DNA of 62,894 nucleotides, filler included, from 9 parts of 9 records of this genome joined end to end with filler, not necessarily neighbours in it, one strand, 5' to 3'. Counted from the whole stretch's first letter, positions 3,496 to 61,929 are shown. The notes: generated from the sequence alone by a model not told the origin. Made by a program: numbers and translations.

Positions 3496-4414
3496 CGTAG
3501 CCGAGCGAGCGCAGCGCACGGGCGTCATCGGACCACCCCGCCTTGATCTTCACCCACAGGTTGAGCATCACCTTGCGCTCGATCAGGCGTTCAATATCTT
3601 CACGGGCCTGAATGCCGATCTGCTTGATGCGCTCGCCCTTGTCACCAATAAGGATTTTTTTCTGGCCGCGGCGCTCCACCAGAATGGCGGCGGAAATTTC
3701 GGTGACGCGGGGGCCATCTTCCCACATCTCCACTTCCACACTCACCTGATGGGGTACTTCCTGCCCGAGCTGACGAACCACTTTTTCGCGAATGATTTCC
3801 GCTACCATAAAACGCAAGCTGCGGTCAGTAAGCTGATCTTCCTCGTACCAGAACTCACCTTCCGGCAAACGCTGAACCAGTGCTTTTTCAAGCTCCACCA
3901 GGTTTTGTTCGCGCAATGCAGAGACTGGAATCACCGCATCGAAGGGGTAACGTTCACTCAAAGTCTGGATATGCGGCAACAAGGCCGCCTTGTCATCCAC
4001 GTTATCGACCTTGTTAATGATCAACAGTACCGGCACCTGATCCTTTTCCGGCAACAGGGACAGCACGTGCTCGTCCGCCGGCGTCCACTTCATGGCATCC
4101 ACCATCATGCAGATCACGTCCACACCGAACAGGGTGGACACTGCGGCTTCATTCATGGCGCGGTTCAGCGCCTTTTCCTGACCGGTATGAATACCCGGCG
4201 TATCGGCAAAAATAATCTGATAGTTGTCCCGGCTGAGAATTCCGTGGATGCGGTGACGGGTGGTCTGCGGCTTGCGTGAAGTAATGCTGACTTTCTGGCC
4301 GATCAAGTGGTTCATCAACGTGGATTTGCCCACGTTGGGACGCCCGACGATGGACACCATGCCGCAACGGGTCGCGTGGGAGTCATCGGGTTGGGACGTT
4401 GGGATATCAGTCAT
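3482..4414 (-). CDS. era: GTPase Era
   Basis: GRPNVGKSTL, DTPG, NKVD, KH domain; ATG at 4414 overlaps the rnc stop. Confidence 0.97.
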   Translation of the reverse strand: MTDIPTSQPDDSHATRCGMVSIVGRPNVGKSTLMNHLIGQKVSITSRKPQTTRHRIHGILSRDNYQIIFADTPGIHTGQEKALNRAMNEAAVSTLFGVDVICMMVDAMKWTPADEHVLSLLPEKDQVPVLLIINKVDNVDDKAALLPHIQTLSERYPFDAVIPVSALREQNLVELEKALVQRLPEGEFWYEEDQLTDRSLRFMVAEIIREKVVRQLGQEVPHQVSVEVEMWEDGPRVTEISAAILVERRGQKKILIGDKGERIKQIGIQAREDIERLIERKVMLNLWVKIKAGWSDDARALRSLGYDEPR

Positions 4415-5093
4415 ACTGTTGCTCCAGCCATTCAAGCGCCAGGCTTGCGGCCTCCTGCTCGGCCTTGCGGCGGCTCGCGCCCTGGGCGATAAATATCTGC
4501 TGCACCTGATCCAGTGAGCACTGCACATCGAAGGTCTGTTTCGGAGCCAGCCCTTCCACTTGGGTCACTTCATAGGTCGGCAATTCAAATTTGCGCGCCT
4601 GCAGCCATTCCTGCAAACGGGTTTTGGCATCTTTCTGGGCACTTTGCGGGGAGATGGCGTCAAGGCGTGGCGCAAACCAGCAAAGCACAACCTCACGGCA
4701 ACGGGACTCACCACCGTCCAGCAACATGGCACCAATAATCGACTCCAGCGCATCCGCAAGAATGGAATCACGGCGGAAGCCGCCGCTTTTCAACTCACCG
4801 CCACCCAGCACCAGGTATTCCCCCAGGCCCAGCTCCCGGGCTACCAGAGCCAGCGTTTGGCCACGCACCAAAGACGCCCGCATTCGGGTCAACTGACCTT
4901 CGGCTGCTTCCGGGAACTGTTCAAACAGGGCAACGGAAATAATTTGCCCGAGCTGGGCATCACCGAGAAACTCCAGGCGTTCGTAATTACGGTGGCGGCT
5001 GACACTACGGTGTGTCAGCGCCAACTCGAGAAGGGAAATATCCTGGAACTGATAGCCCAGGCGGGCCATCAGCCGGTTAAGATCACCGTTCAC
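4407..5093 (-). CDS. rnc: Ribonuclease III
   Basis: NYERLEFLGDA signature, dsRBD KTRLQEWLQ. Confidence 0.97.
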   Translation of the reverse strand: MNGDLNRLMARLGYQFQDISLLELALTHRSVSRHRNYERLEFLGDAQLGQIISVALFEQFPEAAEGQLTRMRASLVRGQTLALVARELGLGEYLVLGGGELKSGGFRRDSILADALESIIGAMLLDGGESRCREVVLCWFAPRLDAISPQSAQKDAKTRLQEWLQARKFELPTYEVTQVEGLAPKQTFDVQCSLDQVQQIFIAQGASRRKAEQEAASLALEWLEQQYD

Positions 5094-5473
5094 TGGCGAA
5101 CGTCTTTCTTGAACTCGTCTTTGAAGGTCATCACGATGCTCACGTTGTAGAACATCGGTTCGCGCACTTCATAGTCTGTGGACACGGTCAGCACGCCGGC
5201 TTCCTTGGCGATAGCCAGGTCATCGACACGAATTACATCGACCTGGTTAATGGTGAAACGCTTGTCTATCCCTGCGCGAATTTCACTTGGGGACATGAGT
5301 GCTGTTTTGCTGTCCTGCAGCACTGAGCGGATGGTTGTCGAAATCGTGTTGTGCTCCATATAGGCCGGAACCATACGGAATGCTGCCGTCCCCAGAATAG
5401 CCACAACGATCAGCACGACTGCCCAGCTGATCAGTGACATCCCACGTTGCCGTGAGGGCGTTGTTGTCATCAT
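5090..5473 (-). CDS. DUF4845-type membrane protein with pilin-like N-terminus
   Basis: RQRGMSL plus hydrophobic helix; usual position between lepB and rnc. Confidence 0.8.
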   Translation of the reverse strand: MMTTTPSRQRGMSLISWAVVLIVVAILGTAAFRMVPAYMEHNTISTTIRSVLQDSKTALMSPSEIRAGIDKRFTINQVDVIRVDDLAIAKEAGVLTVSTDYEVREPMFYNVSIVMTFKDEFKKDVRQ

Positions 5474-27783: not shown

Positions 27784-30700
27784 GTACGTAACGGTAAATC
27801 TGTACGTATACCTGGATAGAACACACCTTTCCTGGTAGGGTGCATGTTATACGTTACACGCCATGCATAAACTGAAATTAGTAAAGTGCTTACATAATAC
27901 ACTGTTTATGCTGAGTAGTATTACCCATGTCTATACCTGTAACCCCCACGTGTACATGGCGTGTTGTAAACACACAAAAAAAAAGTTATAGTTTATTACG
28001 ATTGTTTTGTTTGTGTAACATACTATGTGTGAGGGGTCATTCCCAGGAAAGGTGTGTTGCGTATGACGTCTATAAAAAGTATAAAACTTAAGTATACGTG
28101 CATACACCTTTCCTATATTAATATGTAGTATACTACGTAACACAAAAAATCAAAAAACGATATTACGTAATCAACAGGACGTCGCTACGGGGATATCCAC
28201 CTACTATTTTTTGTACGAGCTGAGCATAGTTGCTCGGGGAGGATATGACATGCAGGTTTACACCTTTCCAGGTAATGTACATATATATACAATACTTACA
28301 ATTCTCAAAAAAGTGAAATTCCACAGGTTAGCAGATGCTGTACCGTGTCGTAACGTATTGACTTATATGTTGTAACAGTATAAGGCGCAAAAGTTTACAG
28401 TTTAAACTACTTATATGTACCGTAACAATACTCTTTACCTGTTACGTGTGTTTCCACATGCTTGCCGTACATACAGGTTATGTATGTATTGTGGGATTGA
28501 TTGATGTTTGAAATCAATATAGTACAATGTCTTACAGGAAAGGTGTATCCGCGGGGGTGTATGTTGACATCAAACGTAATAAAAACGCAGTGGCGTTGTA
28601 CATAACTGTACAAGTGTATACTACGTAATGCGGCATACAAGTTATAACCCTGTTAAACAGCATGCACAATATAAATACATAATGTGCCACCTGTGTGTAC
28701 GTAAGTATTACTCCTATGACACTACATACATAGAAGTAAGTGTAGTTGCTGTCACATATATTTGAAATTTTTTTTGTATGTTTTGTTATAAATCTTTTAC
28801 TATCCGTTTTACAGGAAAGGTGTACACAGTTCTGTGTTGTTATACTTGCTGTACACGTTATGCATTAATACCATGGTTGAAGTGTCATCCTACATCACAT
28901 AACCAAAACACAGTAAACAACACATGAACATACTTAGTATTCGTCTTGTGTACTGTTACTGTTTTTGTTTGGTGTTGTTCATGTAATTACTGGATGATGT
29001 CTACACGGAAAGGTGTAGTTTACATTACACGTGTATAGTATGTTAAGCGCTGTTATCCGGGTGAGATACTTTCGGCCATACGGTCGACCTCTACTGTGGA
29101 GATGCTATACTACTGATACACCAGTACCAGGTACGCTCCGTATGCGGTACATGTAAACACGCGTATACCTACAGACGTGTACAGGGAAAGTACCTACCCG
29201 TAGCAATCGTGTGTTTAGTTACGAAATTTATGTTGTATTATTGCATATCATATCCGGATAGATTATCTCAGGAAAGGTGTAACCCCAATGGAACGCGGGG
29301 AATAACCTCCCTAAAAAAGAGAGAGCGTGCAATACGTACTACGGTATATGTTGTATGCGGTATCCGCAAGTATTACGTACGCCGTGTGTGTGTATATATG
29401 TACATGTACACCTTTCCGATAAGTATACAATGTTAATCATACTACAACAAATTTCAACAAACACGCAGTGCCAGTATACATGGTATACATAACAGACCCC
29501 GTGGTGATAATAATCAGGGATGTTCTATAATACACGACAAATAATAGACTTACATTTTACGTAACATACAGTGTATTATAACCATACTATGTAAGTTCGT
29601 CTTCCCGGGAAACAACGACCACCGTATGCATACGTGTGTGTAAACGTGTACCACGCAAAAGAATCAACTATGTATTGCATATTTTATGTTGTACGGTAAA
29701 CGACTAATCTAATTATTGTATGCACCTTTCCATTGCTGGCGTAACATGGATGTACGTACGTCAACACCCACACGAAACCTACAGTACATGGAAGTGTACA
29801 CGGTATCGTACATACAACCCTATTGTTGTATGGTATTGTACTGTCCTTCAAAAAAAAATGTAATGTATCTGAAAAAATCTACGCGGACAAATGTAATCAT
29901 ACGTAACGTACACCTTTCCTGGGGGAACGGATTCACGATGAATTACAAAAAACAAAAAATGTAAACGCACGTAATAACCCTCTATGCTTTTTTACGCATA
30001 TACGTGGTGATGGTAAGGTTAAATTTATTAAATACGGAAATACATGTAATACCGTAGTGTGTGTAATGCACGCGTACCGCACACGTCCGTAATGCAACAC
30101 ACACTTTTCGTGTAGTGTTTATTATTGTTTACATGCATCCCGTATTACGCATAAACAAAATTATCCCCATATTTTTTATTTTTTGTGTGTTTGGTGTAAC
30201 GTACACTATCCGTACAATTATCCGGAAAGGTGCATTAATATGTATTATACATACATTATGTTATAAGTTCGCGTACTTGTAATTCATACTTGCTATGTGT
30301 TGAACCCCGTTGATGTCACGGAGTGTAAACCATCCCCGCGCACGATGCAAATTTGAGCAATAACAACTTACTATACGTAGGTGCACACCTTTCCTACGTG
30401 TACATGCACGTAAGCTCTACAAAAAAACAACACCAACTACGTCTTTTTATAAATGTTGAGTCTTATCGGTACCGTGCGTAGTATAGCCTTGGTTTAACTA
30501 CGTATTAACTTAATCGATATAACACGAGCATACATTACCGGTGCACATCATCCAGTTTGAGTGTATTGCTTTTGTTTACTATTTTTTGTGCACACTGCGT
30601 ATTACATAGGAAAGGTGTATTGTGGCTGTTACGCGTAATGATACTACTTGCACTTACACTGTTGTATTAATACGACAATACGTACGCCGTAGTATTACCA

Positions 30701-33700
30701 GGGCCATGTGTGTGTAGGAAACGTTACATGCATTGTAAGTTTGGCTTTGTATTTATTGATTACAGTAACGTTGACCGGGACGCACTTACCTGGAAAGGTG
30801 TACGCAGATATTCCCATAGAAGTACGTCCTATAAGTTAAGTAACATACGCAGGGTATAGGGCATTAAATACTCTGTAAAATTATAAATGGTTACATAAAC
30901 GCGGTACGATATACCGTGCTGACTATCGCGTGACCAGCATATGTAATAGCATATTATACTTTTTCTTTTTTTTTGTTTGTTACAAATAATGGTGTCGTTG
31001 CAATTGTCGGAAAGGTGTAATGTCTGTAACGTGTATTGGTATGTTTTACTGTTGCTTGCGCATCTCGCGTAATAGTATCTGAGTCTTTACACGTACATCA
31101 GTAGGTCTTAACGCTCATAATAGACACTACGTGGTATGAGTTGGGTATATATCCCGGGTGTAAATATATTATTTCCGTATACTTATATACATTAAATCAT
31201 TTGGGTTTATATATATATACGTATACACATCATACGTGTACACACCTTTCCAACTTATATACATATACCGTATCCCGTAAAACAAACATAAACAACGTAA
31301 ATTTATATTGAGTACACACACCGTTTTTGTAGTGTTATGGGATTCCATAAATGCATACGTATACCCACACAAAAAATATAAAAAGTAGGGGTCCCATTTG
31401 GTGCAGACACAGTGTGGTGTAAACGTGTGCATTTTTCATAGTATGGGTATTCCGTTTCCGTTGCCACACCATTAATATATTGTATGTAGTGTAACACCTT
31501 TCCGGTAGTTTACAGTTATTAATGTTATCAAAAACATAAAAACATTGGAACAACACGTTATTAACTGTGTATAGCGTAAAATGTTATACACGTTGTTTGT
31601 GATATGGGTGATGCGTTACAAACGTACATATACGTAGATAAACTGTATGCACTAAACTCGTAGTAACAACGGAATACGCATTGATACTGAAAGCTGATAT
31701 GTGTAGTTCCTTTTTTCATAGAGTATACACTATGTAGATATACTACGCGTGTTACGTAGGATTACGTTAATTCTTCCATACCAGTAACTGCATATTGGGG
31801 TGGTATTTTAGTTTGGGATGTACAGTAATGTACAACGCACTACTTACTTAGGAAAGGTGTGGCGTGCATGCTGCATGCTATGTAGTTTTGTTATCATTTT
31901 GTTTTGTTGTGTCCGTTATTGTATATACCGACTTTATAGGAAAGGTGTAATTTATATTGTACGTACCAAGGCTACCACAACTCCGTGACTACGTGTAATA
32001 CACCCGGTAAAATATAACCTCTACACACAGGTACTGCGTAAAACAAGTCCCTGGGTATATATTAACACGGTACTTTACGCTACGTGTGTGGTGAAGATGT
32101 ACATCTGTTTGTTATTAACTTTTCGTGTTTTGTTGCTTTTATGTATATACTATAATGTCTGCAAACCGTAAGGAAAGGTGTCGTGCTACACCGGGGTTAC
32201 TGGACATGACCTTATTCTACTTATACACGTACAAGATACGATCACTGTATGCACCGTCTCAAAAAAAAACGGGATGTACGACTACCACGCATATGCGTGT
32301 ACACGATATGTGTGTGTACCACTGTACATGCCGCCAGGTATATATATATATACGAGCTTACGCTGATATTATTGTTGGATACGTGTATCGTATGCAGTAC
32401 ATAACGGAACTTATTTTTTTTAGAAAGACATACCGACAAGCAATGTACGCGATGTAGCTGACATAGCATGTACTACGTCCCCGAAGTGTTACCCTACTTG
32501 GTTTGTTGTTGCTTGTTATTTGTTTATGGCTTACATCACGTATAGGGAAAGGTGTTATGGATGTAAATCCATTTACAGGATAACATATTTATGTTATGCG
32601 TGGGTACACCTTTCCTGAGGAAATACACACCATCAAATAAACGTAGCAATCACACAAAAAGACGAGCGTATGTACACACCATGTTGAACGTATGTCACGT
32701 GGATAAGTATATATCACACGCAACTAATTCAGGGAACATACTACGTATAACGAAGTTTATTAATTGTTACTATTGACAACCGTGTACACACCTTTCCGTA
32801 TGTAAGATCACAATGCATTACAGGGCAACAACAAAACAAAACTAGTTCACATAGTATGTTGCGTTATTATCCGTGTGTAACAAAAACCGGGTACAATGAA
32901 AGTACACACACATGCAGTTTCCTCCATTTTGCAGATGTGGGTATGCGTTGCCTGTATACGCGTATTCCGGAAAGGTGTACACGTATACTAGTTCCACGTA
33001 TCACCGCCGTACAACGTGCACACCTTTCCAGAGCAGAGTTACATCCACCACGATATATGTATCCTTCAAAAAAACAAGATACATCCTCGTATGTGTGTAT
33101 AGTCACTGTGTATTGTGTGCTTGCCTGTTACGTGTATAGTGGTATGTTAGCTATTGCATAACCCGGGCATTACTGTGGGAATAATATAACACCCTACACA
33201 TTTTGGTGTTGGTATATGTAACTGTTGTCATATACGTAATTGTGGTGTATACTATTCTACCACACAGGGTTGTATACATATGAACACCTTTCCATACCAG
33301 TCATACATGTACGTAGTAAGGGGTCTTCCACAACATAAATATTACACACCTGGTGGGAGGTATTATACGTTGTGTAAGTGCACATCCGTCTATAGTATTA
33401 CTACTGTAATAGCAGTTACACCTTTCCTGTACACGTGTATTACACTCATATCGGGTGCAACAAACAAAAAACATTTCACGCATAGTAGGTATATATCATA
33501 GCAATATGCTATACGTAGGACGTAATATGCTTAACCGTATGTTTTATTATTTGTGTACACGTTATGTATTTGTCATCTGTTACTACGGAAAGGTGTACAC
33601 GTTGTGGAAGCTATTACTTCACGATTACAATAAAATGACATACACTATACACGTAGGACACTGCATGCACCTTTCCTGGGTGTGGTATGTACGCCACGTG

Positions 33701-35108
33701 TAGACTACGCAAACATAAAGTTATGTATGATTACGTGTATGTTTATGTAAAGCATATAACGCTATAAAAAAATGTATATGTTTTTGTAGTAGCTAAATTT
33801 ACATACATTCCCATTACGTATTTAACATAACATTGCATGCGTGGTATACATAGTGCACAGCGTTCACACCTTTCCGGTATAAGCCTGTATATATGTATAG
33901 TCCAAAATCATGACAAACCACCTAGGCAAAGTTACGCACCCGGTACAATACAGGCGAACGTACTTTACATGTTATAACGTATACGTTTTGAAATGTCCCA
34001 TATCCTACGCGGGTTGGGTGGTTAGTGTATATTAGTGTACACTCCCCCCGGCCTATCGGCATCGTGGGATGTAATTATTCTACGCGGGATTATACACCTT
34101 TCCGGGTTTAACGTAATTCTAGTAAAATAGAACAACAAAAACAACAAACTACCCGCATGTACCTGTCTACATATTTTGTAAGGTACCGTTATACTTATCA
34201 CGATACTATACGGTTACAATAAATTTACGTAATACGTGTGCATATAAAATAAAAGATATTAAGCCACGTAATAACTATGTGTTAATGAGTACTATGTATG
34301 CACACGATACGTACATTCTGCATTATACAGAGTAAAACTACACCTTTCCTATATAACGCTATTATCAGCTGGGTTACGCAAAACATGGGATTACTAACGT
34401 AGCATACCTATATATCATGTGGAATGTGTAAATACTGCACACATTTAAAAGTCGTAGTTACTACGTTGGTTTACACGGAGTGTACTTCACACCTTTCCGA
34501 GAAGTGTTAAATAACGATATTAACTATCGCAAAACGAAAATTAAGCAAACTCATGTTATGCAAGTAATGTACTGGTTACGGGGTATATAGTACCCGTATC
34601 CTTCCATAAGACATAACACATACACGTAAATCATGTGTAACATGCACACCTTTCCGTATGGTTGAATACATTACCGTTGTTGCAAGACAACAACAACAAC
34701 ATAAAACTACGGGTATATCACACCCCTATGTAACATACATCCTAAGTTAAATATCATGTCTGTCGTGGGTAACACGCGGTATACATACAAGAACTACATC
34801 CGGGGCTTACATGTCATATAGAAATATATATTTTTTTTTATTTCTGTGTGTACTGCTACCATATGATATACCCTTACTGGAAAGGTGTTCGGGTTTAATC
34901 CCGGTGTAATATACGCATGACATTGTTATACGTAGTCCCCCTGGTAGTAACATGTGTACTGCTCGGAACGCAGTATAACAATGCGTGGTTACGTAAAATA
35001 TCGGGATTACGTGTAACGTGTAAAGTAATGTACGTAATATTGTATAATACAGTAAACACTTATATTACAACTCTTACGACGTAGTAGTGTACATAACCGT
35101 ACGTACAC
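27784..35108. repeat. Gene-less AT-rich contig with 36 dispersed directional units (RCACCTTTCC + about 25-35 nt + A/C-rich tract); putative small-RNA gene array
   Basis: RCACCTTTCC on + at 27823, 28104, 28260, 29408, 29722, 29910, 30385, 31242, 31494, 32606, 32788, 33020, 33284, 33418, 33667, 33866, 34094, 34340, 34489, 34646. GGAAAGGTGY at 28046, 28537, 28814, 29007, 29271, 30224, 30609, 30792, 31009, 31851, 31939, 32172, 32546, 32969, 33587, 34879. No ORF over 110 aa. Confidence refers to the repeat structure, not the function. Confidence 0.93.
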
Positions 35109-48169: not shown

Positions 48170-48857
48170 GATGCATATCAATCTGCATAAAACCTTTTCG
48201 ACCCCGCATGGCGGTGGTGGACCGGGTTCCGGGCCGGTTGTGTTTTCAGATGCATTGGCACCCTATGCGCCGATCCCTTATGTCGTTCGCAATGAAAATG
48301 GCTTCCATCTGGTCGAAACCGCAGATGAAAAAGATGGCAAAAAGCCATTTGGTCGTCTGAAAGGGTTCCATGGTCAAATGGGCATGTTCGTTCGTGCGCT
48401 GACCTATATGAAAAGCCACGGTGCGGACGGTTTGCGTCAGGCATCCGGGGATGCGGTTCTGAATGCCAATTATCTGCTGGCACGTCTGAAGGACAAACTG
48501 AGCGTCGCCTTCCCGGGATATTGCATGCATGAAGCCCTGTTTGACGACAGCTTCCTGAAAGATACCGACGTCTCGACACTGGACTTTGCAAAGGCAATCA
48601 TCGACGAAGGGTTCCACCCGATGACGATGTATTTCCCGCTGGTCGTTCACGGCGCACTTTTGATCGAGCCGACCGAGACCGAAACCAAGGAATCGATCGA
48701 TCAGTTTTGCGATGCGATCCTGTCGCTTGTCGCCAAGGCCGAGTCGGGTGATGCGGAGTTCTTTAAGAATGCGCCTTATCTGACACCGCGTCGTCGACTG
48801 GATGAGACAGCGGCTGCACGGAAGCCTGTGTTGCGCTGGAAACCGGAAACGGCTTGA
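48170..48857 (+). CDS. gcvPB: Glycine dehydrogenase subunit 2 (5'-truncated)
   Basis: HINLHKTFSTPHGGGGPG, IEPTETE, RRLDET. Confidence 0.95.
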
Positions 48858-48881
48858 TAAGCAACGCACCTTGCGATTTCA

Positions 48882-48916
48882 GAACACCCCGGCCCTGTGT
48901 CGGGGTGTTCTTTTTC
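48882..48916 (+). terminator. Rho-independent terminator
   Basis: GAACACCCCGGC-CCTGT-GTCGGGGTGTTC then TTTTT. Confidence 0.8.
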
Positions 48917-49060
48917 AATGACTTGCACTTGAAACCCATTGGACTTGTTGCAATCTGAACCCTTATACTTGTCTGAAGTACTAATGAACGGCATCAGTAA
49001 ATGGTGTGTTTGGGGATTATGTGTTCGGGCATTGCCCGTTCCGGAGGTTTGAAGTCAGTC

Positions 49061-49975
49061 ATGTCTCGTCGCGTGCAAAAAGTATTCACTGCCGAACGTC
49101 GATTAAAAGAACGGACAGGTGGGGTTGTTGAAGATTGGTCGGACTCCTTTTTTGATCCGACGCTTGAGGCCGGACTTGGTGCCGGTGAGGCGATGACGCC
49201 TTCACTGCCATCATCAAATGCATCTGAAGGCGGCTCTGACCTGACACAAGCTGTCCTCGATGAAATCCGTGCGCTGCGTGGCGAAGTTTCGCAATTGCGT
49301 TCTGCTGTGGCATCTGGTGGCACCGTAAGTGCCGATGTTGCTGCACCTCTTGCGTCAAATGACCCGCCGCTTGATGTGTTGCCTGAACCTGTTTCGAGCA
49401 ATTTCACACATAGCAATCGCCCCGGGGCAGCTGAACCGGATCGGGATGATCTGGAATTGATTCGCACCCAGATTGCCGAAATGAACGAGCATATCCACAA
49501 GGCCAAGGTCCAGATTGCATCACTTCGTCATCCCAAGGCGTCCGATGATCGGATCGTCAGTGCGACGTCGGAGTTGGATGCGATTGTCAAAGATACAGAG
49601 ATGGCAACACACACCATTCTGGAATCGGCTGAACAGATTGATGATCTGGCGATGACGTTGAAAAACTCTGCACCAAGTGAATTTGTTGCAGATCACGTCG
49701 AACAGATCGCCTTTATCGTTACAAAGATTTTTGAATCCTGCAATTTTCAGGACATCACAGGTCAGCGTATCAACAAGGTGGTTCGGACACTGGAATTCGT
49801 TGAAGAACGTGTCCACAATATGATCTCGATCTGGGGCGAAGAGGCCTTTGCCGATCTTCCGGTTCCGGAAAGCGATGCCAAAGAAAGCGAGCCTGATGAT
49901 TCCGATCTTTTGAACGGTCCTCAGCTTCAGGGCGAGGGGATTAGTCAGGACGATATCGATAAATTGTTCGATTAA
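49061..49975 (+). CDS. cheZ: Chemotaxis phosphatase CheZ, alphaproteobacterial type
   Basis: ELDAIV..TE.AT..IL, FQDITGQRI, LLNGPQ, SQDDIDKLFD. Confidence 0.88.
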   Translation: MSRRVQKVFTAERRLKERTGGVVEDWSDSFFDPTLEAGLGAGEAMTPSLPSSNASEGGSDLTQAVLDEIRALRGEVSQLRSAVASGGTVSADVAAPLASNDPPLDVLPEPVSSNFTHSNRPGAAEPDRDDLELIRTQIAEMNEHIHKAKVQIASLRHPKASDDRIVSATSELDAIVKDTEMATHTILESAEQIDDLAMTLKNSAPSEFVADHVEQIAFIVTKIFESCNFQDITGQRINKVVRTLEFVEERVHNMISIWGEEAFADLPVPESDAKESEPDDSDLLNGPQLQGEGISQDDIDKLFD

Positions 49976-50184
49976 CGGTGAAAAATCTTGGGTTTCTGCC
50001 TATATTTAGGGAGTGACCGTACCCAACCCTTTCAAAGAAAAAGGGTGAAGGTGTCCAAGCAGGGCCTTTCGTCAACTAAACGTTTACAAATGTTGGGGTA
50101 GGTTCATACCTATAAGAATAAGAAGCGATGTTGGGATGCGTGTGATATTCGGTTGCACGCGTTTTAGCGTGCTTGGAGGATACT

Positions 50185-50589
50185 ATGGGATTTTGGTCTC
50201 TTGGTGCTATTCGCCAGCCTAAGGCGCAGGATATTAAGTGGCGGAAGAGCCCGCGTGGTGACTACTATCGCCTCTTCATGATCGATGACATTTCAGAGCT
50301 TAAACTGAATGGCGTTGGTGGTGTGTATTTGCTGTGGCATGGCGGGATAAAGCCATCTTGGCTCGTCGCAGGCGCGACAGAGGATCTTGGGCACAGTTTT
50401 TCGGAACTGATGCGCGATCCCGATATTCGCGAATATGACGGCCGCGGCGGTGTTTACATGAGCTGGTCGCCGATCAAAGGCAGCTTCCGGGAAGGGGTTG
50501 TGCATTTCATCGCAAAGCACACCAACCCGACCTTTGAGTGTGACTATGACAGCAAATCAGACCCGATACCGGTTCTGTTGCCGCGATAA
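50185..50589 (+). CDS. Hypothetical protein, possible degenerate GIY-YIG fold
   Basis: RBS GGAGG; GGVYLLW...LVAGATEDL. Confidence 0.6.
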   Translation: MGFWSLGAIRQPKAQDIKWRKSPRGDYYRLFMIDDISELKLNGVGGVYLLWHGGIKPSWLVAGATEDLGHSFSELMRDPDIREYDGRGGVYMSWSPIKGSFREGVVHFIAKHTNPTFECDYDSKSDPIPVLLPR

Positions 50590-50619
50590 CCACGCAACGT
50601 CGTCTTGGCTTCAGATATA

Positions 50620-50651
50620 ATAAAGCTCCGCAGTTACCTGCGGAGCTTTAT
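50620..50651. terminator. Bidirectional terminator
   Basis: ATAAAGCTCCGCAG-TTAC-CTGCGGAGCTTTAT between convergent genes. Confidence 0.8.
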
Positions 50652-50676
50652 GTGCTTTTACCTGCAAAAATTCAGC

Positions 50677-51156
50677 TTAGAGCTTCGCAAGTACGGCTTC
50701 GGCACTTGATACGTCAAATGCGCCCGGCTCTTCGACAGCAAGATGGGTGACTTTGCCGTTATCGACGATCATGGCAAAGCGGTTGGCACGCTTGCCAAGG
50801 CCACGGCCGGTCAGATCAAGTTCAAGACCGGTTGCATCGACGAATGCCAGATCACCGTCAGACAACATGGTGATGTCGGTGGCTTTTTCGCTGGTGGCCC
50901 ACGCCTGCATGACGAATGCATCGTTCGATGCAAGGCATGCGATTTCATCGACACCCTTTGCTTTGATCTCGTCGGATTTGGCGACGAATCCCGGAAGGTG
51001 CTTGGCCGAGCAGGTCGGGGTGAAAGCGCCAGGAACAGCAAACAGAACGATTTTGCGGCCTGCGAAGAATTCTTTGGAGTTTACGGCTTCCGGGCCATCG
51101 CTTGTGGCGCGGAAAAGAGTGACGTCCGGGAGTTCATTGCCGACTGAAATGGTCAT
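50677..51156 (-). CDS. Peroxiredoxin (Prx5 type)
   Basis: VPGAFTPTCS, NDAFVM. Confidence 0.95.
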   Translation of the reverse strand: MTISVGNELPDVTLFRATSDGPEAVNSKEFFAGRKIVLFAVPGAFTPTCSAKHLPGFVAKSDEIKAKGVDEIACLASNDAFVMQAWATSEKATDITMLSDGDLAFVDATGLELDLTGRGLGKRANRFAMIVDNGKVTHLAVEEPGAFDVSSAEAVLAKL

Positions 51157-51357
51157 GGGTATCTCCGTATGGGGTGCGCAATCCCGTTGATTGCGCGATG
51201 GATCGTATGGTTGGGAATCAAACTACAAATTCGTTGGATATTCAATGCCATCCAGCGGTGTTTTTCGTAAGTTTCATCAGGAAGACTTTTCAGCGATCTT
51301 TGAGTGATGCCTGAAACGCCTGCTGCACTTTCTCTACGGGCGATCTTTGAGGTGTGA

Positions 51358-51869
51358 TCATTGTGCGTTTTTCGCAAGGTCACTGCTGGTATTAGCATCG
51401 CGCAAAGCCGTCAAAACAGCATCGGTGCTGAGCAATTCCGATAGTAAAATTCCGTCAGGCGCATTGGGACCAAAGACCGCATTAAACGGAATGCCAAAAC
51501 GCCCATAAGATGCCAGATAATCAGAAATCTGTTGGTTCGGGCGGGTCCAGTCGGCCTGCATCAGAACGATGTTGTCGCTTTGAAGCGCATCGGAAACCTC
51601 GGCTGTTTCAAGCACCAGCTTTTTATTGACCTGACAGGTCACACACCATTCGGCGGTGACGTCGACCAGAACCGTTTTCCCATCCGCAACAAGGCTGCCA
51701 ATGGTTTCAGGTGCGAAGCTTTGCCATTGAAGCGGACCTGTTTTGGTGTTGCCAGCCATCGGTGCAATAGGTTGGGAAAAGCCCGGTGCAAACAGGGCGA
51801 CAAGGAAGCCCAAAACAGCAAATGCGGTAAAGGCAAATCGCGGACGTAAGGATGACGTGCGTTTACGTG
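51358..51869 (-). CDS. DsbD-family protein, C-terminal thioredoxin domain (5'-truncated)
   Basis: DVTAEWCVTCQVN, ADWT, GIPFN. Confidence 0.88.
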
Positions 51870-51969
51870 NNNNNNNNNNNNNNNNNNNNNNNNNNNNNNN
51901 NNNNNNNNNNNNNTTAATTAATTAANNNNNNNNNNNNNNNNNNNNNNNNNNNNNNNNNNNNNNNNNNNN

Positions 51970-52190
51970 ACGCCATACTTGGATGAGTTCACAACCTGTA
52001 GAATTTTCGCTGCCAGCGCGGGATCATGCTCGATACATCGAACAATATCATCGATACGGCTTTCCGGATCTCGAGTCAGTTGCAGAATCTGTTGTGCAAC
52101 TTTCGGGGCCGAGTGTAAGCGATCTAAACGTTGGACAAATTGATCTGCCAGATCAACAGGGTCTGCACAATTATCAACTAACATGACCAT
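51970..52190 (-). CDS. HDOD-domain protein (3'-truncated)
   Basis: IEHDPALAAKILQVVNS. Confidence 0.85.
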
Positions 52191-52418
52191 CCTTCTTTTT
52201 GTAGTTTTCTGCGTTGCAATTTAGCCCGTTTGGGGATTCTCTTCTCTCGAAATCTATCTTTGAGAGAACGCAGACACGGTCAATAATTGAGATCCGAAAA
52301 CCAGTTTATTGATTCTCGGATGCGACTGTTCCAGAAATAACGGTCGGAACTGTTGTAGTACCAGCCGGCTCTCGATTCTGAGAATGGTTTCCCTCCTCAG
52401 AACTTTCCCTGTTTGGAC

Positions 52419-53300
52419 TTACGTCAACAGTTTGAGTCCCGATTCCTGGATCTCATAGGGCACCAGCGATTCATCGACGGCACTGCCACGATGTTTGGCG
52501 ACATGCAGTGCCCGGCTCATCCGGTTCCCTTCTTTGATTTTGCCCATCAGAATGATGGTATTCGCATTGGAAAGAACATCCCCACTCTCAATGGGACGTT
52601 GAATCAGATCATCCAGCATCACTTCATACGTCGTCAGCAGCAGCAGACACCCGATCTGCTGAAAATCATAACGATGCTGCTCAACTTCGGCCTGATGACT
52701 GCGGAACTGTGCCCGGAACAGGTCCCGGGCGACCCAGTCGTATTCTTTTCGGAGGATCTGGTGGTAGACGTATTCAAACGCATGAAACTGAAACGAATCA
52801 CTGGGACGATCTGTCGGCTCGATACCATCGATCACCGTCCGCCGGACGCCATGCACAAAGTTGGAATAAAAAAAGGCAATCGCGGCATCCAGTTTCTTGA
52901 CGAATTCCAGTTTCCACTCTTTCCATTCATCCAGTTCCATATCGCGGCGCGTCACCCGGCGACCACTCTGGCGAAACAGATGCTGGTAATCGGTTCGCGT
53001 ACCAACATCCCAGATCTGGTCCAGGTCAAAGGGGGCATCGACCAGCTGTTCGCGCAGCTTCCACTGAAAAAGGCGCTCGGCGTAATCACTGTGGCTCTGC
53101 GAATCGCCGCGGGTTGCCATATCAAACAGCACCCCGGTCTGCCCTTCCTGCTGCAGGCCGGCCTCTGCGAACTGCAGACCAAGCTGCGTTTTGCCAATCC
53201 CGGTCGCGCCCAGAACGACGGTCAGTTTGCCTGGCATTAACCCGCCCGAGAGCAGTTCATCGAGTTCCGGAATTCCTGTTTTTTGTCGCAAGTCAGCCAT
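52419..53300 (-). CDS. KaiC/RAD55-like RecA-superfamily ATPase
   Basis: [43 protein letters not shown]. Confidence 0.88.
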
Positions 53301-53379
53301 GATGAATCTTCATTTCGCAGAGAGAACCTCCGCGCCTTTGTGGTTTACGGTTTGTGCCAGCTGCCGAGTTGACCGGAGA

Positions 53380-54495
53380 TCAGACGGTAATATAGCGGTC
53401 GCGTGCAGCCACATTCCAGTGGTCGACCACTTTTCCGCCACTCACGACCGTCACGGATTTATGCAGAGCCGACGTCGGACAGACATGCCGGGGAATTGCC
53501 AGCAGCTCATCGCCGGGCTGAAATTCCCCTGCCCGCGCACTGATGACGACCAGATGTTCTTCATTCTGCAACACCGGTTTCGCATCAGGCAGATCGGGGA
53601 ACCGGCAGCGATTTTCCATCGCAGGATCAGAGGCAATCGCTTTATAACCCAGATCAAAGGTGATGCGCTGCGAATCAGGGCGACTGATCACGCGCGTTAA
53701 TACCAGCGCTGCGGGAGTGAATTTCAGGTCGGGAAACAGTTCTCCGTAGCCGACATCATGCAGCACGCAGGTTCCCGGACAGACTTCGATATCCGGATCG
53801 TCAATGCCGGCAAAGATGGGGAACGAACCGGTCGCACCTGCGACAATCCGCGGGACCGGGAGTCCTTCAGTGACCAGTTGATCCCGCAGGCGACTCACGT
53901 TGTTCCAGACCTCTTTGACCGCGATCTCCCGTTCATGGATATCTACCTGATGATTCTGCCCATCGTAGGCATGCAGACCCGCGGCGATTAAACCAGGCGT
54001 GTTGGCGATCATCTGGTACAGTTCGACGGCGTTCTCCCCTGGAGGAAGGCCGGTGCGATTCTGTCCGGTATTCAGATCGAGCAGGACTTCGATTTCGAGC
54101 CCTGCAGCGGACATGGCTTCGCCCAGCAGTTCAATCGGGCCGGGATGATCGGCGGTCACCTGCAGTGACACATCGGGCCAGCGTTTACGGAATTCAACAG
54201 CACGGGCGATATTGGGACCGACCAGGTTATAAGCCAGGCAGATATCTTTGACCCCCGTATCCGCCAGCATTTCGGCCTCTGCAAATGTCGCCGCCTTATG
54301 CTTCAGGATTCCCAGTGAAAGTTCCAGCTGGATGATCTCGCGCATCTTATGTGTTTTACAATGCGGGCGCAGTCGGGAAGGGTCGCCGACCAGCTCAATC
54401 ATTTTTCGTATGTTGTCCTCAAGCAGATCCTTGAAGATAATCATTCCCGGAGAAATGATCTGGCTTGTATCGTCTATCTGATAGCATGCATCCAT
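53380..54495 (-). CDS. D-threonine aldolase/D-serine dehydratase-like PLP enzyme
   Basis: RPHCKTHK, HAYDG, EEH, PRHVCPT. Confidence 0.88.
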   Translation of the reverse strand: MDACYQIDDTSQIISPGMIIFKDLLEDNIRKMIELVGDPSRLRPHCKTHKMREIIQLELSLGILKHKAATFAEAEMLADTGVKDICLAYNLVGPNIARAVEFRKRWPDVSLQVTADHPGPIELLGEAMSAAGLEIEVLLDLNTGQNRTGLPPGENAVELYQMIANTPGLIAAGLHAYDGQNHQVDIHEREIAVKEVWNNVSRLRDQLVTEGLPVPRIVAGATGSFPIFAGIDDPDIEVCPGTCVLHDVGYGELFPDLKFTPAALVLTRVISRPDSQRITFDLGYKAIASDPAMENRCRFPDLPDAKPVLQNEEHLVVISARAGEFQPGDELLAIPRHVCPTSALHKSVTVVSGGKVVDHWNVAARDRYITV

Positions 54496-54522
54496 GAGCA
54501 GACCTGATCGCAGTTTGAAAAA

Positions 54523-55362
54523 TTAAATACCCTGAAAGAAGACTTTTTCCGCCGTCTTTTCCAGAACCCATTCTTTATCCATCTTAGAGAGGAATGGCAG
54601 GCCATTCTTGACCAGACCGATTGACGCCTGATACGAATGATCGCCTTGAACCTGGTACGGACAGTCGGTAGCCCACATCAGACGATTGGCTCCGAAAGCC
54701 TGATAGACTTTATTGATCAGCGGCAGCAGATCGTGATACGGCATCTGTTTTTTGCCCAGCGCGTAAAAGGCGGAGACTTTGACATACACATTGGGATGTT
54801 TCGCCATCTTGCAGAGCATGTCGACTTCTTTGGGATCGATTTCCCCCGTCACGCCAATGCGGGCCAGATGGTCGATGACCACAGTCGTATCGCGATGTTT
54901 CTGGCACATCTTATCCAGGGCAGGCAGACCGACGGCATCCATCAGGCAGCACATGGCCATCCCTTCTTTGGCACCGGTGGTCCACATTTCTTCCATGCAG
55001 TCCCCGTCCAGCCATTCGTCAACTTTTTTCGAGAGAGGACGAATGCGAAAGCCACGCACGCCTTTCTTTTTCAGCGCCAGCATTTCCGGCGTGGGGTTCT
55101 TTCCATTCTGATCAATCACTGCCACGCCCGAGAACATGCCCGGGTACTTTGCCATGCAGTCCAGCATGTAGCTGTTATCGAAGCCATAAAATGACATCTG
55201 AATCAGTACGACCCGATTCACGCCGACCGGCATCATTTCAGCCTGCAGCTCTTCAGCGGTAAAGCTGGGAGGTACCATATCAGAAACCTGAAAACCTGGT
55301 GCCAGTGGATATTTTTTGACATCCGGAGTCCAGACATGCGAGTGTGCGTCGATATATTCCAT
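54523..55362 (-). CDS. Amidohydrolase 2 family protein
   Basis: IDAHSHVW, VIDHLA, RLMWATDCP. Confidence 0.9.
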   Translation of the reverse strand: MEYIDAHSHVWTPDVKKYPLAPGFQVSDMVPPSFTAEELQAEMMPVGVNRVVLIQMSFYGFDNSYMLDCMAKYPGMFSGVAVIDQNGKNPTPEMLALKKKGVRGFRIRPLSKKVDEWLDGDCMEEMWTTGAKEGMAMCCLMDAVGLPALDKMCQKHRDTTVVIDHLARIGVTGEIDPKEVDMLCKMAKHPNVYVKVSAFYALGKKQMPYHDLLPLINKVYQAFGANRLMWATDCPYQVQGDHSYQASIGLVKNGLPFLSKMDKEWVLEKTAEKVFFQGI

Positions 55363-55407
55363 AGCAGAAGCCTCTGATAAAAAAGGTCAGTGGAAAAACA
55401 GCCCGAA

Positions 55408-56717
55408 TCAGGAATCGGCTTTGGCGGTGTAAAAGAATTTGTGCACGAGTTCTTCCGGTGGGGGAGCCGTCATTTTTGTGACGATAAAACCGGAGATAAA
55501 CGAGACAAACAGGCCGATGATGATCGGATCAAAATCGAATAACTGGTAAGGCTTGAAAAAGCTGCCATTCACAAAATAGCCGGTGACATACATCGCCAGA
55601 TGTATGGAAAAACCGCCGAGCATGGCCCCCATGGCGCCTGCTGCATTCACGCGTCTCCAGTACAGACCATAGACGATCGTCGCGAGGAAGCTGGCGGCCA
55701 GTCCACTGCCGACATACACGATAATATCCTGCAGGAACTGGGGAGGATTGATGGCGACCACCATCGCAGCGGTACCCACGACGAAGGTTGCCAGATAACT
55801 TAAGATCTTGATCGTTTTCTCACTGGCTTCGGGATTGATATTCCGCTGATACACATCACGCACCCAGGCCGAGGAAATCAGCAGCAGGAAGCTGTCGACC
55901 GTCGACATGACAGCGGCAAAAGGAGCTGCCACCAGCAGACCCGCCAGCCAGCCCATGCCAATATGGTTGGTCAGATAAACGGCCATTGCCGGCATGATCC
56001 GGTCCGAATCACCTTCCATCCCGGGCAGTAATACACGGGCACAGCAGAAAATCACGACCAGCGGGAAATAAATCAAAGTGTAATAAATGGCCACGGTACA
56101 GATGGAACGCTGCAGCGTTTTCGTATCGCGAAAGGCCATCAGGCGCACCATGTTGGCAGGTTGACCGGTTCCGGAAATTGCCCACATGAAGAAGAACGAA
56201 ATCGCCAGACTCAATGGGAGGAATCCGCTGTCACTGCCGGGACTGGGCCCGGGGCCGACAATATAGGTCCCCTGCTGGCTGCCTGCTTCTCCGTATGCAT
56301 ACGCTTTGAGATCAATATTGGAAACACTGACATCATCGAGAAATTTTTCACTTTCGCGACGAGCCAGGATCCGCTCAATATCATCCAGTGTGGTCAACTG
56401 CAGCACTTTGACTTCATTGACGGTGGTCTCACCCTCGGCAATTTCGCTCGCCACAGTGACACGAAATAACAAAGGCGTTTTATTGTCGTCGATCGGGGTA
56501 TCGGTGATCCAGGTCCCCGCTTCAATCCGCATCGTTTCCGGCGCGGGTTCTGCAAGGGTCAACGTGATCCCCCCCTTATCCGGATCCGATATCCGGGGCG
56601 GCGTCATTTTCGCCATCAGTTTCGTGGTATTTTCCAGACCACCGGCCTGTGAGATGGCTAAAGGCAGCATGATGATCACGCCGATGACCATCACGATTCC
56701 CTGCATCACATCGGTCC
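55408..56717 (-). CDS. Sodium:solute symporter (5'-truncated) with large loop insertion
   Basis: TD.MQG, GQP..VR.MA, AAVMSTVDSFLL, multiple TMs. Confidence 0.88.
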
Positions 56718-56817
56718 NNNNNNNNNNNNNNNNNNNNNNNNNNNNNNNNNNNNNNNNNNNNTTAATTAATTAANNNNNNNNNNNNNNNNNNNNNNNNNNN
56801 NNNNNNNNNNNNNNNNN

Positions 56818-58498
56818 AGGTTATATCTCCCTGTGGAATGGACACTCCACCAGTTTCGTGATCCGCAGTGATGATTAATAAGGTATTTGGGTTGGCATCC
56901 ACATACTGAATCACTTTCCCGATTACCTCATCAAAATCCAACATCTCCGATACGATCGTTGAAGTACTATTGGCATGTCCACCCGAATCAATATTCGCTG
57001 CCTCTACCATTAGGAAAAAAGGAGCATTTTTATGATCAAAAAACTCAAGTGCGTACGCTGTGCTCTGTAGCAAATAATCGCCTCTCCCATCCAACTTTTT
57101 AGGTAGGGATCCCTTTGCTGCAAAATACCCAACACGATCCGCCTCAGTCTGTTCTAAGCTTTCTACCAGTGTAAACCCTGCACTTTCAAGGTTTGCCACT
57201 TGGGATTGAAAAGAATCTCCGCCTCCACCGATGAAAAGATCCAATTTACTTGTTGATAAATAAGCTGCGATCTGATCAGAATCATCACGCTCAGGATGAT
57301 GTGCATAGAAAGATGCCGGAGTTGCTCCCGTCAATTGATCGGTGGTAATAATCCCACTTGAAAACCCATACTCATGAAGAAGATCTGGAAGATTTGGCAA
57401 AGAATTCCCTTTCGAATCAACGCCTAGCGCACGGTTATTTGTTTTCTCTCCCGTCGCATAGGCAGTGGCTCCGGCAGCTGAATCAGTGGTAAAATCATCT
57501 GCAGCCTGAGTTTTGATTAAGCCCATATTTTTCAACTGAGTTAGATTGAGCTGATTGCCGTTGGAAAACAAAGCAGAGGCTATCTGCGTCAATCCATTGC
57601 CATCTCCAATCATCAGAATCACATTGTCAACGGGAACTTCAGCTCCGTCGCCTTCAAAAGTCGGCTGGTAAACCTCATGAATTGAAGTGTTTTGATAGAC
57701 ATTTTCACTCAACTTATTCAGATAAGCTGCTGCCTCGATTGGGTGATCAGTATTGATATAATCCTCCCCCATTTCATGAAATGCCTTCCAGGCAGATTTA
57801 CTATCTGGAGAACCCCAAAAGCGAACCGGCTTATCAAAACTATGAACCAAATCAATAAACTCTTGAAGATTTGCACGTTGATCCTCGACCATCCTACCTT
57901 TTCCATTCCAAATAGAAAATTGGCGAAAACTCAAACTCACCATCCCAATTTTATTCCAAGGCAGATCGGTCGTCAACTCCTTACTTTGGTAATCAAATAG
58001 CATCCATTCCGGATAATTTTTATAATCCTCGGCTTTTGGCCTGTTTCCTGAAATAATTAATTTCAATCCATTGGAATTACCTGAGCTAAAAAGAACCGCT
58101 TCATAATCTTTCATGCTTTCCTCTAGCACTTTCAATGTGGAATAAGCCTCGGTTTTCAAATCAACCAATAGATGGAAGTTGATCGATGAAATCACCCCAC
58201 TTTTGATCCCCTCTGAAATCGGATCCAGATACAAACTTTCAATGGTTCGTTTTGGATCTATACTCGCCGCTTCGTGCGCAGCCATCAGTTTACCATCCTT
58301 TAAGATCAGGTCTACTTCTATAGAGGATGCTCCAGCTGAATAGGCTGTCCAAAAAGGAACAGTTTGCAAGTAATCATTGTGGGAGTGAATTTGAAAATCT
58401 TTGGAATTCTGTGCCGAAACTTGACCTACAGCAATCAGAATAAAGACCAAAAGGCTTGAAATGAATTTATGCATTTCTAAAAATAGAATATTCATCAC
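56818..58498 (-). CDS. Alkaline phosphatase with N-terminal PLC/GDPD-like domain (3'-truncated; start may be 58474)
   Basis: HSHNDY...SIEVD; then MIGDGNG, TDSAAGATA, TPASFYAH, TADHETGG. Confidence 0.88.
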
Positions 58499-58725
58499 TA
58501 TTTCACTGCTCCATTAAGTTCAAAAAGCTAAGGCTTAACAAATTCATAAAACAGTACGACAACATAGCTTAATCTCTATTTAGAATTTTTTAGCACAAAA
58601 CTGATTTCAAGATCCTTACTCTATCCTCATCTTTATAAGCGGCTACTAATGCAAAAGAAAAGCAAGCATAGATTTAATAGAAATCCACTGAAAATAGGCG
58701 AATATTGCCAGTTGAATTGAAACTC

Positions 58726-59802: not shown

Positions 59803-59909
59803 AAGGCCTCCAATTGATTAGTAAGAATGGCAGAATAAATGCTACCTCTTGGCTACCAGCATTTGCAAGTAGATTTACAATTCTTTAATTCGAATTAATT
59901 CCTGAAATA

Positions 59910-61703: not shown

Positions 61704-61929
61704 GTGCATCAGCTCAGTCATAGCTATCCCAGCATCTTTACTTCCTAACTATTTCTTCTATAGAAAAGAGAGTGAAAAGGCGTGTATTCTAATTTCAGGA
61801 AATGTCGATTTATTAGGGAATACACCTTATTCAAACTCATATACCTTGGCAAAAGGTAGTAATTCATTAGTTTTTAATAAATTACTCTTACTTATTCCAA
61901 ATCCTTAGAATTCACATCATTTCCTATAC

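Follow-up and report, generated by a model that had tools for sequence, protein, structure and literature searches.

Background

The DNA analysed here is a stretch of 62,894 nucleotides, referred to as the window, in which a single contig (positions 27784-35108) carries a dense array of short units, each headed by a conserved motif; the closest described systems are the guide RNA (gRNA) genes of kinetoplastid mitochondria. In Trypanosoma brucei the gRNA has its 5' end 30-32 bp after the forward repeat in over 94% of the transcripts (PMC6868439). In Trypanoplasma borreli, putative gRNA loci are described on contigs of about 70 kb, where they occupy both strands of a unique inner region in no reported pattern, with a motif, RYAGGCTTT, 20-40 bp upstream of them; inversely oriented repeats flank these contigs, which are probably linear and whose coverage varies by as much as fivefold (PMC9679448). 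The gRNAs of this species have a median length of 28 nt, with 0.11 G:U pairs and 0.13 mismatches per base (PMC9679448; table in PMC12936278).

Other carriers are more remote. For the candidate gRNA genes of Perkinsela, the cited account gives no common motif save an A- or A/C-rich tract on the 5' side of the mRNA-complementary region (PMC4669381). The HL-circles of Vickermania and other non-minicircle carriers are listed as molecules of 15-22 kb bearing several gRNAs each (PMC12936278), and the gRNA contigs reported for free-living prokinetoplastids measure 0.6-2.2 kb (PMC7859406). On diplonemid chromosomes, gene modules sit in cassettes whose constant regions are class-wide, and the cited passages report no guide RNAs (PMC7049700). 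Promoters and initiation signals in trypanosome mitochondria are called obscure in a 2019 review (PMC6789859).

A conserved motif and the anatomy of its units

The window consists of nine contigs chained by 100-nt spacers of N around TTAATTAATTAA. A search for ACACCTTTCC, allowing at most 1 mismatch, produced 38 matches in it, against 3.65 expected (sd 1.89; maximum 9; none of 100 shuffles reached 38), a tenfold enrichment. All but two lie on the array contig, from 27823 to 34888, 20 on the + and 16 on the - strand; 33 of these 36 are exact and three read GCACCTTTCC, with G at the first position, so that the consensus is RCACCTTTCC. A preliminary description, made from the sequence alone, had placed an array of a conserved motif at 27823-34888, as is indeed found. 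It had also noted a spacer of about 30 nt followed by unique cargo, and this agrees with the window units, where the A/C-rich tract starts 31 nt past the motif end; the T/G-rich string that it quoted is present near 28002-28016.

Counting from the motif start, the 35 window units with full flanks share, in constant register, a stretch at +41..+54 that is rich in A/C and poor in G and T, and neither G nor T occurs at +41 in any of them. The anatomy was then established on a pooled set of 677 motifs with full flanks, out of 690 found on 28 sequences (see below). A 14-nt segment of at least 85% A+C, starting at +35..+48, is present in 29/35 window units and in 508/677 pooled units; the same composition was met by 8.3% of 5,000 random placements. 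Conversely, the motif lies 25-60 nt upstream of 157 of the 200 strong A/C tracts examined.

In the pooled units, position -1 prefers T or C and is followed by R and by an invariant CACCTTTCC, the full form being (Y)RCACCTTTCC. C is depleted at +10..+16, and the spacer beyond has background composition. A climbs from about +33 and returns to background by about +68; at +47..+50 the composition is A 65-69%, C about 20%, G 2-5% and T 9-11%. An A/C segment could be delimited in 554/677 units, with a median start at +37 (interquartile range, IQR, 34-40) and a median length of 22 nt (IQR 16-29); the median onset is thus 27 nt past the motif 3' end in the pooled set, and 31 nt (+41) in the window units. 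The upstream element is therefore at a fixed distance: RCACCTTTCC is constant in 690 units, and the spacer avoids insertions and deletions. The block is unstructured as RNA, with a mean minimum folding energy of -2.3 kcal/mol, compared with -5.5 for a control stretch.

Spacing between neighbours was evaluated over all arrays. Tandem gaps are shorter than 66 nt in 2/315 cases and convergent gaps shorter than 129 nt in 1/173, whereas divergent motifs come as close as 19 nt. A unit therefore needs practically nothing upstream and about 65-79 nt downstream of its motif, which would accommodate an RNA of at most about 40-45 nt. The succession of unit orientations along the contigs follows no pattern.

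Related arrays in metagenomes

Sequence collections were scanned by using two divergent copies of the motif, 40-70 nt apart, as a query. In the genome contig collection 23 loci were hit, none of which is an array, since no locus exceeds 5 motif copies or 0.83 per kb; the viral contig collection returned 0 loci. The metagenome contig collection returned 65 loci, 27 of which are true arrays with 2-6 motifs per kb and a GC content of 0.34-0.40; 23 derive from one Tara sample and 4 from JGI metagenomes. Together with the window contig they make up 28 sequences, for a total of 167,363 bp and 690 motifs (4.1 per kb), with 21-53 units on contigs of 6-12 kb. The finding is real and far larger than the window.

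No Rfam family was found on the 20 largest array sequences (144.6 kb) and no tRNA on the 27 related loci. Tblastn against the 167 kb of arrays, with open reading frames (ORFs) from the bacterial COX1/COX3 and RpsL regions, gave a best E of 0.2.

In two loci from other metagenomes, L047 (1-4627) and L074 (1-1790), the exact motif is sparser (about 2-2.8 per kb), several relaxed motif matches occur, and block-like sequences are also seen outside the annotated units; a related organism using a slightly different signal may be represented there.

Sequences retained by selection

Orthologous arrays at two distances were available. Twenty units were compared between contig L077 and its orthologues L059 and L073, which are about 89% identical to it. 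The motif has diverged by 1%, the spacer by 9-10%, the segment +37..+56 by 3.5-4.5%, the segment +57..+66 by 8.5% and the remainder by 12.7%; gaps are nearly absent from +10 to +66. At about 60% identity, positions 3057-5321 of the window contig are syntenic with 4541-2529 of L040; this pair and the pair L078/L081 form a set of 13 deeply diverged units. Only the motif (95-100%) and a unit-specific block survive at this distance: over the 13 units the motif is 95% identical, the spacer 56%, the zone +33..+64 79% (86-92% at +42..+53) and the sequence beyond it 55%. In alignment, two islands mark each unit in decayed surroundings; one is the 10-mer, the other a block of about 16-36 nt specific to the unit. 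In each unit selection accordingly retains the signal, an address of about 25 nt and, between them, a spacer of about 24-30 nt that is kept in length and not in sequence.

Apart from the termini and the 10-mer, the contigs are unique. Among 655 units, blocks linked at a score of at least 18 fall into 614 components, corresponding to about 600 different blocks. Related pairs nevertheless exceed those obtained from composition-preserving shuffles: 170 vs 17-39 at a score of at least 16, 43 vs 1-5 at 18 or more, and 16 vs 0-1 at 20 or more; for 18/35 window blocks, a contig of another sample holds a counterpart with a score of 16 or more. Related pairs are in register with the motif (offsets 0-7). 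The blocks are strand-specific, since block-to-block likeness was recorded 7,183 times in the same sense and 109 times in antisense. On these comparisons, selection acts on about 600 short sequences that differ from one another, and each of them follows a promoter-like signal. Hundreds of distinct blocks, each conserved, strand-specific and at a fixed distance from a signal, are what individually promoted small RNAs acting by base pairing would be expected to look like.

Molecules, termini and sequencing runs

The arrays are carried by molecules of about 6-13 kb with inverted terminal repeats, those that are complete measuring about 6-10 kb. A terminal element of about 250-450 bp, in which palindromes of the GGGAAA/TTTCCC type flank a conserved core, is common to many contigs. 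It is present in inverted orientation at both ends of L077 (10,027 bp; 209 nt at 88% and 135 nt at 74%), as well as of L051 (6,084 bp) and L067 (7,436 bp). On L073 the terminal element is a 337-bp tandem repeat, followed by further such repeats; a 326-amino acid (aa) ORF on this contig was discarded as a gene, being a translation of GGAAA/TTTCC repeats. Terminal elements are of two kinds, one typified by L040 and L077 and the other by L051 and L067, both with GGGAAA/TTTCCC-like palindromes, and the two kinds are joined on one contig at L073 1556-4281.

In one sequencing run (X1) the window contig lies within a 13,242-bp record with a word depth of 235, and other motif-bearing records of 4-11 kb reach depths of 280-1494. 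Three runs of one study, labelled with three different organisms, each contain 100% of the sampled words of the contig. The contig is for this reason not from the labelled organisms, but from something common to the three runs, either a shared contaminant or a co-cultured organism. A variant about 95% identical is present in a sediment metagenome at a depth of about 10. This source, together with the Tara sample and the JGI metagenomes, fits the marine origin suggested in the preliminary description.

The about-95% variant (run X5) differs from the contig with an odd spectrum, the 382 changes listed comprising 271 transitions, 101 A<->C plus G<->T and 10 A<->T plus C<->G.

No RNA runs are listed among the runs containing the contig. 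In run X4 a 370-nt record, covering window positions 34383-34736, carries a cDNA-type adaptor at 34383, which we take to be of the SMART type. The genome at this position matches the last seven letters of the adaptor, so that 34383 is probably no true 5' end but the place where template switching led to strand invasion on a + sense molecule of greater length. At most, the record is a hint that units 34 and 35 are traversed by a + sense transcript, the RNA nature of the run being itself a guess.

Comparison with described gRNA systems

As far as the cited sources describe them, the gRNA loci of T. borreli and T. brucei are arranged on the same logic as the present arrays, which differ from them in motif, size and above all density. 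The T. borreli layout is found here in each of its features, namely a unique inner region, loci on both strands, inverted repetitive termini and unequal coverage; a short upstream motif and short gRNAs, or blocks, are further points in common. The molecules of T. borreli are, however, of about 70 kb with 23 high-confidence loci each, compared with about 6-13 kb and about 4-5 units per kb here; its motif RYAGGCTTT is replaced by a different invariant 10-mer, and the terminal repeat shows no element like CSB-3, a conserved sequence block (CSB). The T. borreli loci were identified by complementarity to edited mRNAs, whereas the present array is known from DNA anatomy.

With T. brucei the arrays have in common the fixed distance from an upstream element, a nucleotide bias both around and inside the gRNA genes, and several genes per molecule. 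T. brucei gRNA genes reside on 1-kb catenated circles with CSB-1 to CSB-3 and 3-4 cassettes, nearly all on one strand, and each is enclosed by paired 18-bp inverted repeats and encodes a gRNA of 40-60 nt rich in G:U. Here, instead, the downstream side has no paired repeat, neither strand is preferred and the conserved block falls short of that length.

Perkinsela offers a similar A/C-rich tract on the 5' side and an organelle with very large amounts of non-coding DNA; its candidate genes are reported without a flanking motif, on contigs averaging 730 bp, whereas here the motif is invariant, with the A/C tract itself as the unit-specific part that is conserved best. The carriers of Vickermania differ in being circular, in having several copies of their conserved regions and in bearing 2-5 gRNAs per molecule, far fewer than the 21-53 units per contig found here. 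A diplonemid-type cassette with a gene module was not seen in the 167 kb for the four families tried (COX1, COX3, CYTB and RPS12-like).

A further likeness concerns type-I piRNAs (21U-RNAs) of nematodes, where one short upstream motif precedes each tiny unit, units occupy both strands in dense clusters, and each yields a unique small RNA. Those loci are nuclear and chromosomal, have another motif and produce RNAs whose sequences are not known to be conserved, in contrast with conserved blocks on short molecules with inverted ends. No published description of the motif or of the array was found in a literature search that extended to neither supplements nor subscription journals; the listed papers in which the 10-mers occur are biomedical and have no connection with it, presumably matching through primers.

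Proposed function and alternative explanations

The array contig is not bacterial; it is best read as part of a gene-free multicopy DNA molecule from the organelle of a marine protist, most likely a kinetoplast-type mitochondrion of a free-living kinetoplastid. On the anatomy described above, the explanation slightly favoured is a candidate array of gRNAs of the kinetoplastid uridine insertion/deletion (U-indel) type on multicopy organellar DNA of a marine flagellate. The contig would then be densely packed, on both strands, with tiny transcription units, about 5 per kb. The (Y)RCACCTTTCC motif would position a mitochondrial RNA polymerase or an initiation factor, and transcription would begin about 25-31 nt downstream of it. 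The block, which measures about 22-30 nt, would contain the 5' anchor and a short information region of the guide; it would pair with U/G-rich edited mRNA and direct U insertion or deletion with little use of G:U. Long read-through precursors might be trimmed at their 3' end, and the inverted GGGAAA/TTTCCC-type terminal repeats probably serve replication or end maintenance.

The gRNA array had already been put forward in the preliminary description. In structure the array agrees with it well, and more so with the related contigs added: the motif, the fixed distance, the unique A/C-rich block, the use of both strands, the ORF-free molecules, the inverted termini and the unequal depths are all consistent with it. 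Editing itself drew a blank in three indirect tests, of cascade, wobble and peptide content, and these results, together with others given here, weigh against it. In the cascade test, k-mers shared between block starts and block ends were as frequent as in reversed or shuffled controls (ratio 0.8-1.1), low complexity weakening the test. Mismatch rates like those of T. borreli would erase exact overlap words.

As to wobble pairing, the transition/transversion ratio in the 13 deep orthologues is 0.97 in the block vs 0.93 in the spacer, with no excess of transitions; in the 89% orthologues transitions and transversions stand at 20:6 vs 152:70. Related blocks differ by transversions more than by transitions. 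Since transitions are not in excess in the blocks, and related blocks are rich in transversions, there is no G:U-wobble signature. One orthologous block moreover carries a 1-nt indel, which would shift the reading frame.

In the peptide test, 11-residue translations in mRNA sense were compared with bacterial COX1, COX3, CYTB and RPS12, which are distant references: five reached a score of at least 36, vs a shuffled mean of 3.45 (sd 1.6), and the top real score was 40, while shuffles reach up to 44. The resemblance of an L051 block to a C-terminal COX3 motif (score 40), and of several blocks to the COX1 motif preceding GHPEVY, were both rejected, residue-shuffled peptides scoring as well. The short protein hints of 6-10 residues advanced in the preliminary description are what composition alone yields, and are given no weight because this wider test did no better than shuffled peptides.

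Three other results count on the same side. A search for the CSB-3 dodecamer gave 28 matches at up to 2 mismatches, scattered inside the arrays and none consistently in the terminal element. A marker gene search on the 28 array sequences found none, and no sequence ties the contigs to a euglenozoan. The conserved block is also shorter than the 40-60 nt of trypanosomatid gRNAs. The blank cascade, wobble and peptide tests are each of low power; they lower the gRNA claim only a little, and lend it no support.

They also leave room for guides outside a classical U-indel kinetoplast. A guide-type small-RNA array serving another process or lineage, such as trans-splicing or U-appendage guides in a diplonemid-like mitochondrion, or some RNA-targeting system of a new kind, is rather unlikely, even though small, unique, conserved, unstructured and strand-specific blocks behind a fixed signal would suit it equally, the three U-indel-specific proxies are blank and CSB-3 was not found. 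We know of no guide system of this kind. The complement of the blocks is uniformly U/G-rich, as is kinetoplastid pan-edited mRNA, and suits the latter better than ordinary coding modules; the 167 kb, as said, show no COX1, COX3, CYTB or RPS12-like module (best E 0.2), and guide RNAs are not reported for diplonemids in the cited passages (PMC7049700). The narrower proposal that the arrays encode hundreds of trans-acting guides of a non-classical organelle, for example the long-sought guides that would direct the joining of modules or U-appendage in the mitochondrion of a diplonemid-like or basal euglenozoan, carries a small probability.

The units could also be bipartite sites acting as DNA in replication, segregation, recombination or programmed rearrangement of a multicopy extrachromosomal element, a protein reading the 10-mer and the block being a second site. 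An invariant 10-mer, a spacer kept in length and elaborate palindromic termini would be in keeping with this, but about 600 blocks, each conserved in its own sequence, are unlike the target of one DNA-binding protein. The A/C bias is strand-specific relative to motif orientation, which points to an RNA product, and about 65-79 nt are respected downstream only, divergent motifs being as close as 19 nt; such sites are accordingly regarded as improbable.

The preliminary description listed piRNA-like promoter arrays as an alternative; a version of it, in which small RNAs like nematode type-I piRNAs, each with its own promoter, are clustered in the nucleus of a small marine animal or protist, has very little to recommend it. 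Its geometry, known from Caenorhabditis elegans, is similar, in that each unique small RNA has a short motif about 40 nt upstream of it and the loci are dense and on both strands; but the motif is not the Ruby core, and the 5' U start that goes with a Ruby-type motif has no counterpart here, T amounting to 14-26% across +35..+42 with no preference for it at the block start. The blocks are conserved across strains while their flanks have decayed, whereas piRNA sequences evolve fast; shared inverted repeats end the contigs at 6-10 kb, and depth is up to sixfold apart within one run, which a single chromosomal cluster would not resemble.

An artefact (synthetic or spike-in DNA, chimeric assembly or cross-contamination), which the presence of the whole contig in three differently labelled runs of one study might suggest, is hardly credible, since orthologues at 95%, 89% and about 60% identity occur in independent collections (sediment metagenome, Tara sample, JGI metagenomes), and substitutions in the diverged ones spare motif and block, a mark of evolution under selection.

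If the units are true gRNA genes, they would form the densest arrangement among those in the table of a 2026 review (PMC12936278), at about 4-5 per kb, and would belong to a marine flagellate of water-column and sediment metagenomes, with 21-53 genes per 6-12-kb contig and inverted ends. About 690 aligned natural examples would then make the question of mitochondrial promoters testable. Whether the guide system is classical or of another type, RCACCTTTCC would be, for the small-RNA genes of euglenozoan mitochondria, the first promoter to be sharply defined.

Units and genomic setting of the array contig

The units of the array contig are reported in Table 1.

Table 1. Units of the array contig, in window coordinates. 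A+C is the best 14-nt value; the counterpart score is the best obtained among blocks of related contigs.
Unit	Coordinates	Strand	Motif	Block	A+C	Counterpart score	Related contig and remarks
1	27823..27889	+	27823-27832, exact	27856-27889 (zone)	0.71		weak tract; near contig end, excluded from pooled analysis
2	27989..28055	-	28046-28055, exact	27989-28022	1.00	13
3	28104..28170	+	28104-28113, exact	28137-28170	0.93	16	L051
4	28260..28326	+	28260-28269, exact	28293-28326	0.79	11
5	28480..28546	-	28537-28546, exact	28480-28513	0.86	15
6	28757..28823	-	28814-28823, exact	28757-28790	0.93	20	L040
7	28950..29016	-	29007-29016, exact	28950-28983	1.00	18	L070
8	29214..29280	-	29271-29280, exact	29214-29247	0.79	12
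9	29408..29474	+	29408-29417, exact	29441-29474	0.86	13
10	29722..29788	+	29722-29731, 1 mismatch, GCACCTTTCC	29755-29788	0.93	11
11	29910..29976	+	29910-29919, exact	29943-29976	1.00	15
12	30167..30233	-	30224-30233, 1 mismatch, GCACCTTTCC	30167-30200	1.00	18	L049
13	30385..30451	+	30385-30394, exact	30418-30451	1.00	14
14	30552..30618	-	30609-30618, exact	30552-30585	0.86	14
15	30735..30801	-	30792-30801, exact	30735-30768	0.86	16	L085
16	30952..31018	-	31009-31018, exact	30952-30985	1.00	28	syntenic orthologue L040; about 36 nt near-identical, flanks diverged
17	31242..31308	+	31242-31251, exact	31275-31308	0.93	24	syntenic orthologue L040
18	31494..31560	+	31494-31503, exact	31527-31560	0.93		conserved vs L040 save one 1-nt indel in A run
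19	31794..31860	-	31851-31860, exact	31794-31827	0.86	15	syntenic counterpart L040
20	31882..31948	-	31939-31948, exact	31882-31915	1.00		conserved vs L040; next motif 78 nt downstream
21	32115..32181	-	32172-32181, exact	32115-32148	0.93	15
22	32489..32555	-	32546-32555, exact	32489-32522	1.00	15
23	32606..32672	+	32606-32615, exact	32639-32672	0.93	19	syntenic orthologue L040
24	32788..32854	+	32788-32797, exact	32821-32854	1.00	16	syntenic orthologue L040
25	32912..32978	-	32969-32978, exact	32912-32945	0.79	18	syntenic orthologue L040; block contains G, not A/C-only
26	33020..33086	+	33020-33029, exact	33053-33086	0.86	22	syntenic orthologue L040
27	33284..33350	+	33284-33293, exact	33317-33350	0.86	14
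28	33418..33484	+	33418-33427, exact	33451-33484	1.00	16
29	33530..33596	-	33587-33596, exact	33530-33563	0.86	17	L063
30	33667..33733	+	33667-33676, 1 mismatch, GCACCTTTCC	33700-33733	0.79	13
31	33866..33932	+	33866-33875, exact	33899-33932	0.86	18	L063, adjoining the L063 counterpart of unit 29
32	34094..34160	+	34094-34103, exact	34127-34160	1.00	15
33	34340..34406	+	34340-34349, exact	34373-34406	0.64		weak tract; adaptor-bearing run X4 contig starts at 34383
34	34489..34555	+	34489-34498, exact	34522-34555	0.79	12
35	34646..34712	+	34646-34655, exact	34679-34712	1.00	16
36	34822..34888	-	34879-34888, exact	34822-34855	0.86	16

The array contig measures 7,325 bp and has a GC content of 37.6%, compared with 41-68% for the other eight contigs of the window. 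Its longest stop-to-stop ORF is of 136 aa, with 56 ORFs of at least 50 aa; the four longest gave nothing over threshold in Pfam, a tRNA search of the contig found none, and Rfam returned no family, with three sub-threshold matches only. One of these, to K_chan_RES at 31815-31929 (+), with 32 bits vs a gathering score of 51 and an E of 0.0028, covers the close units 19 and 20 and is regarded as due to chance.

The nearest genome (G001), a bacterium of 3.6 Mb, shares 32% of the words of the window and has no match to the array contig; the lower-GC contigs at 48170-62894 have ordinary long ORFs. Being gene-free, of low GC and unmatched in this genome, next to window contigs with ordinary ORFs, the array contig is a foreign piece, mis-binned into a bacterial genome bin. 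The practical lesson is that it should be treated as a eukaryotic organellar contaminant, and the bacterial bin cleaned of it.

Two minor observations concern the bacterial sequences. The G001 genome, at 94% completeness, has three COX1 matches and no match to the complex I 49-kDa subunit (NuoD) or to F-type ATP synthase subunit a. The bin is heterogeneous, its nine contigs ranging in GC from 0.376 to 0.683; those at 48170-62894 (0.41-0.53) are compositionally unlike the contigs of about 0.58-0.68, and the bin may combine more than one bacterium.

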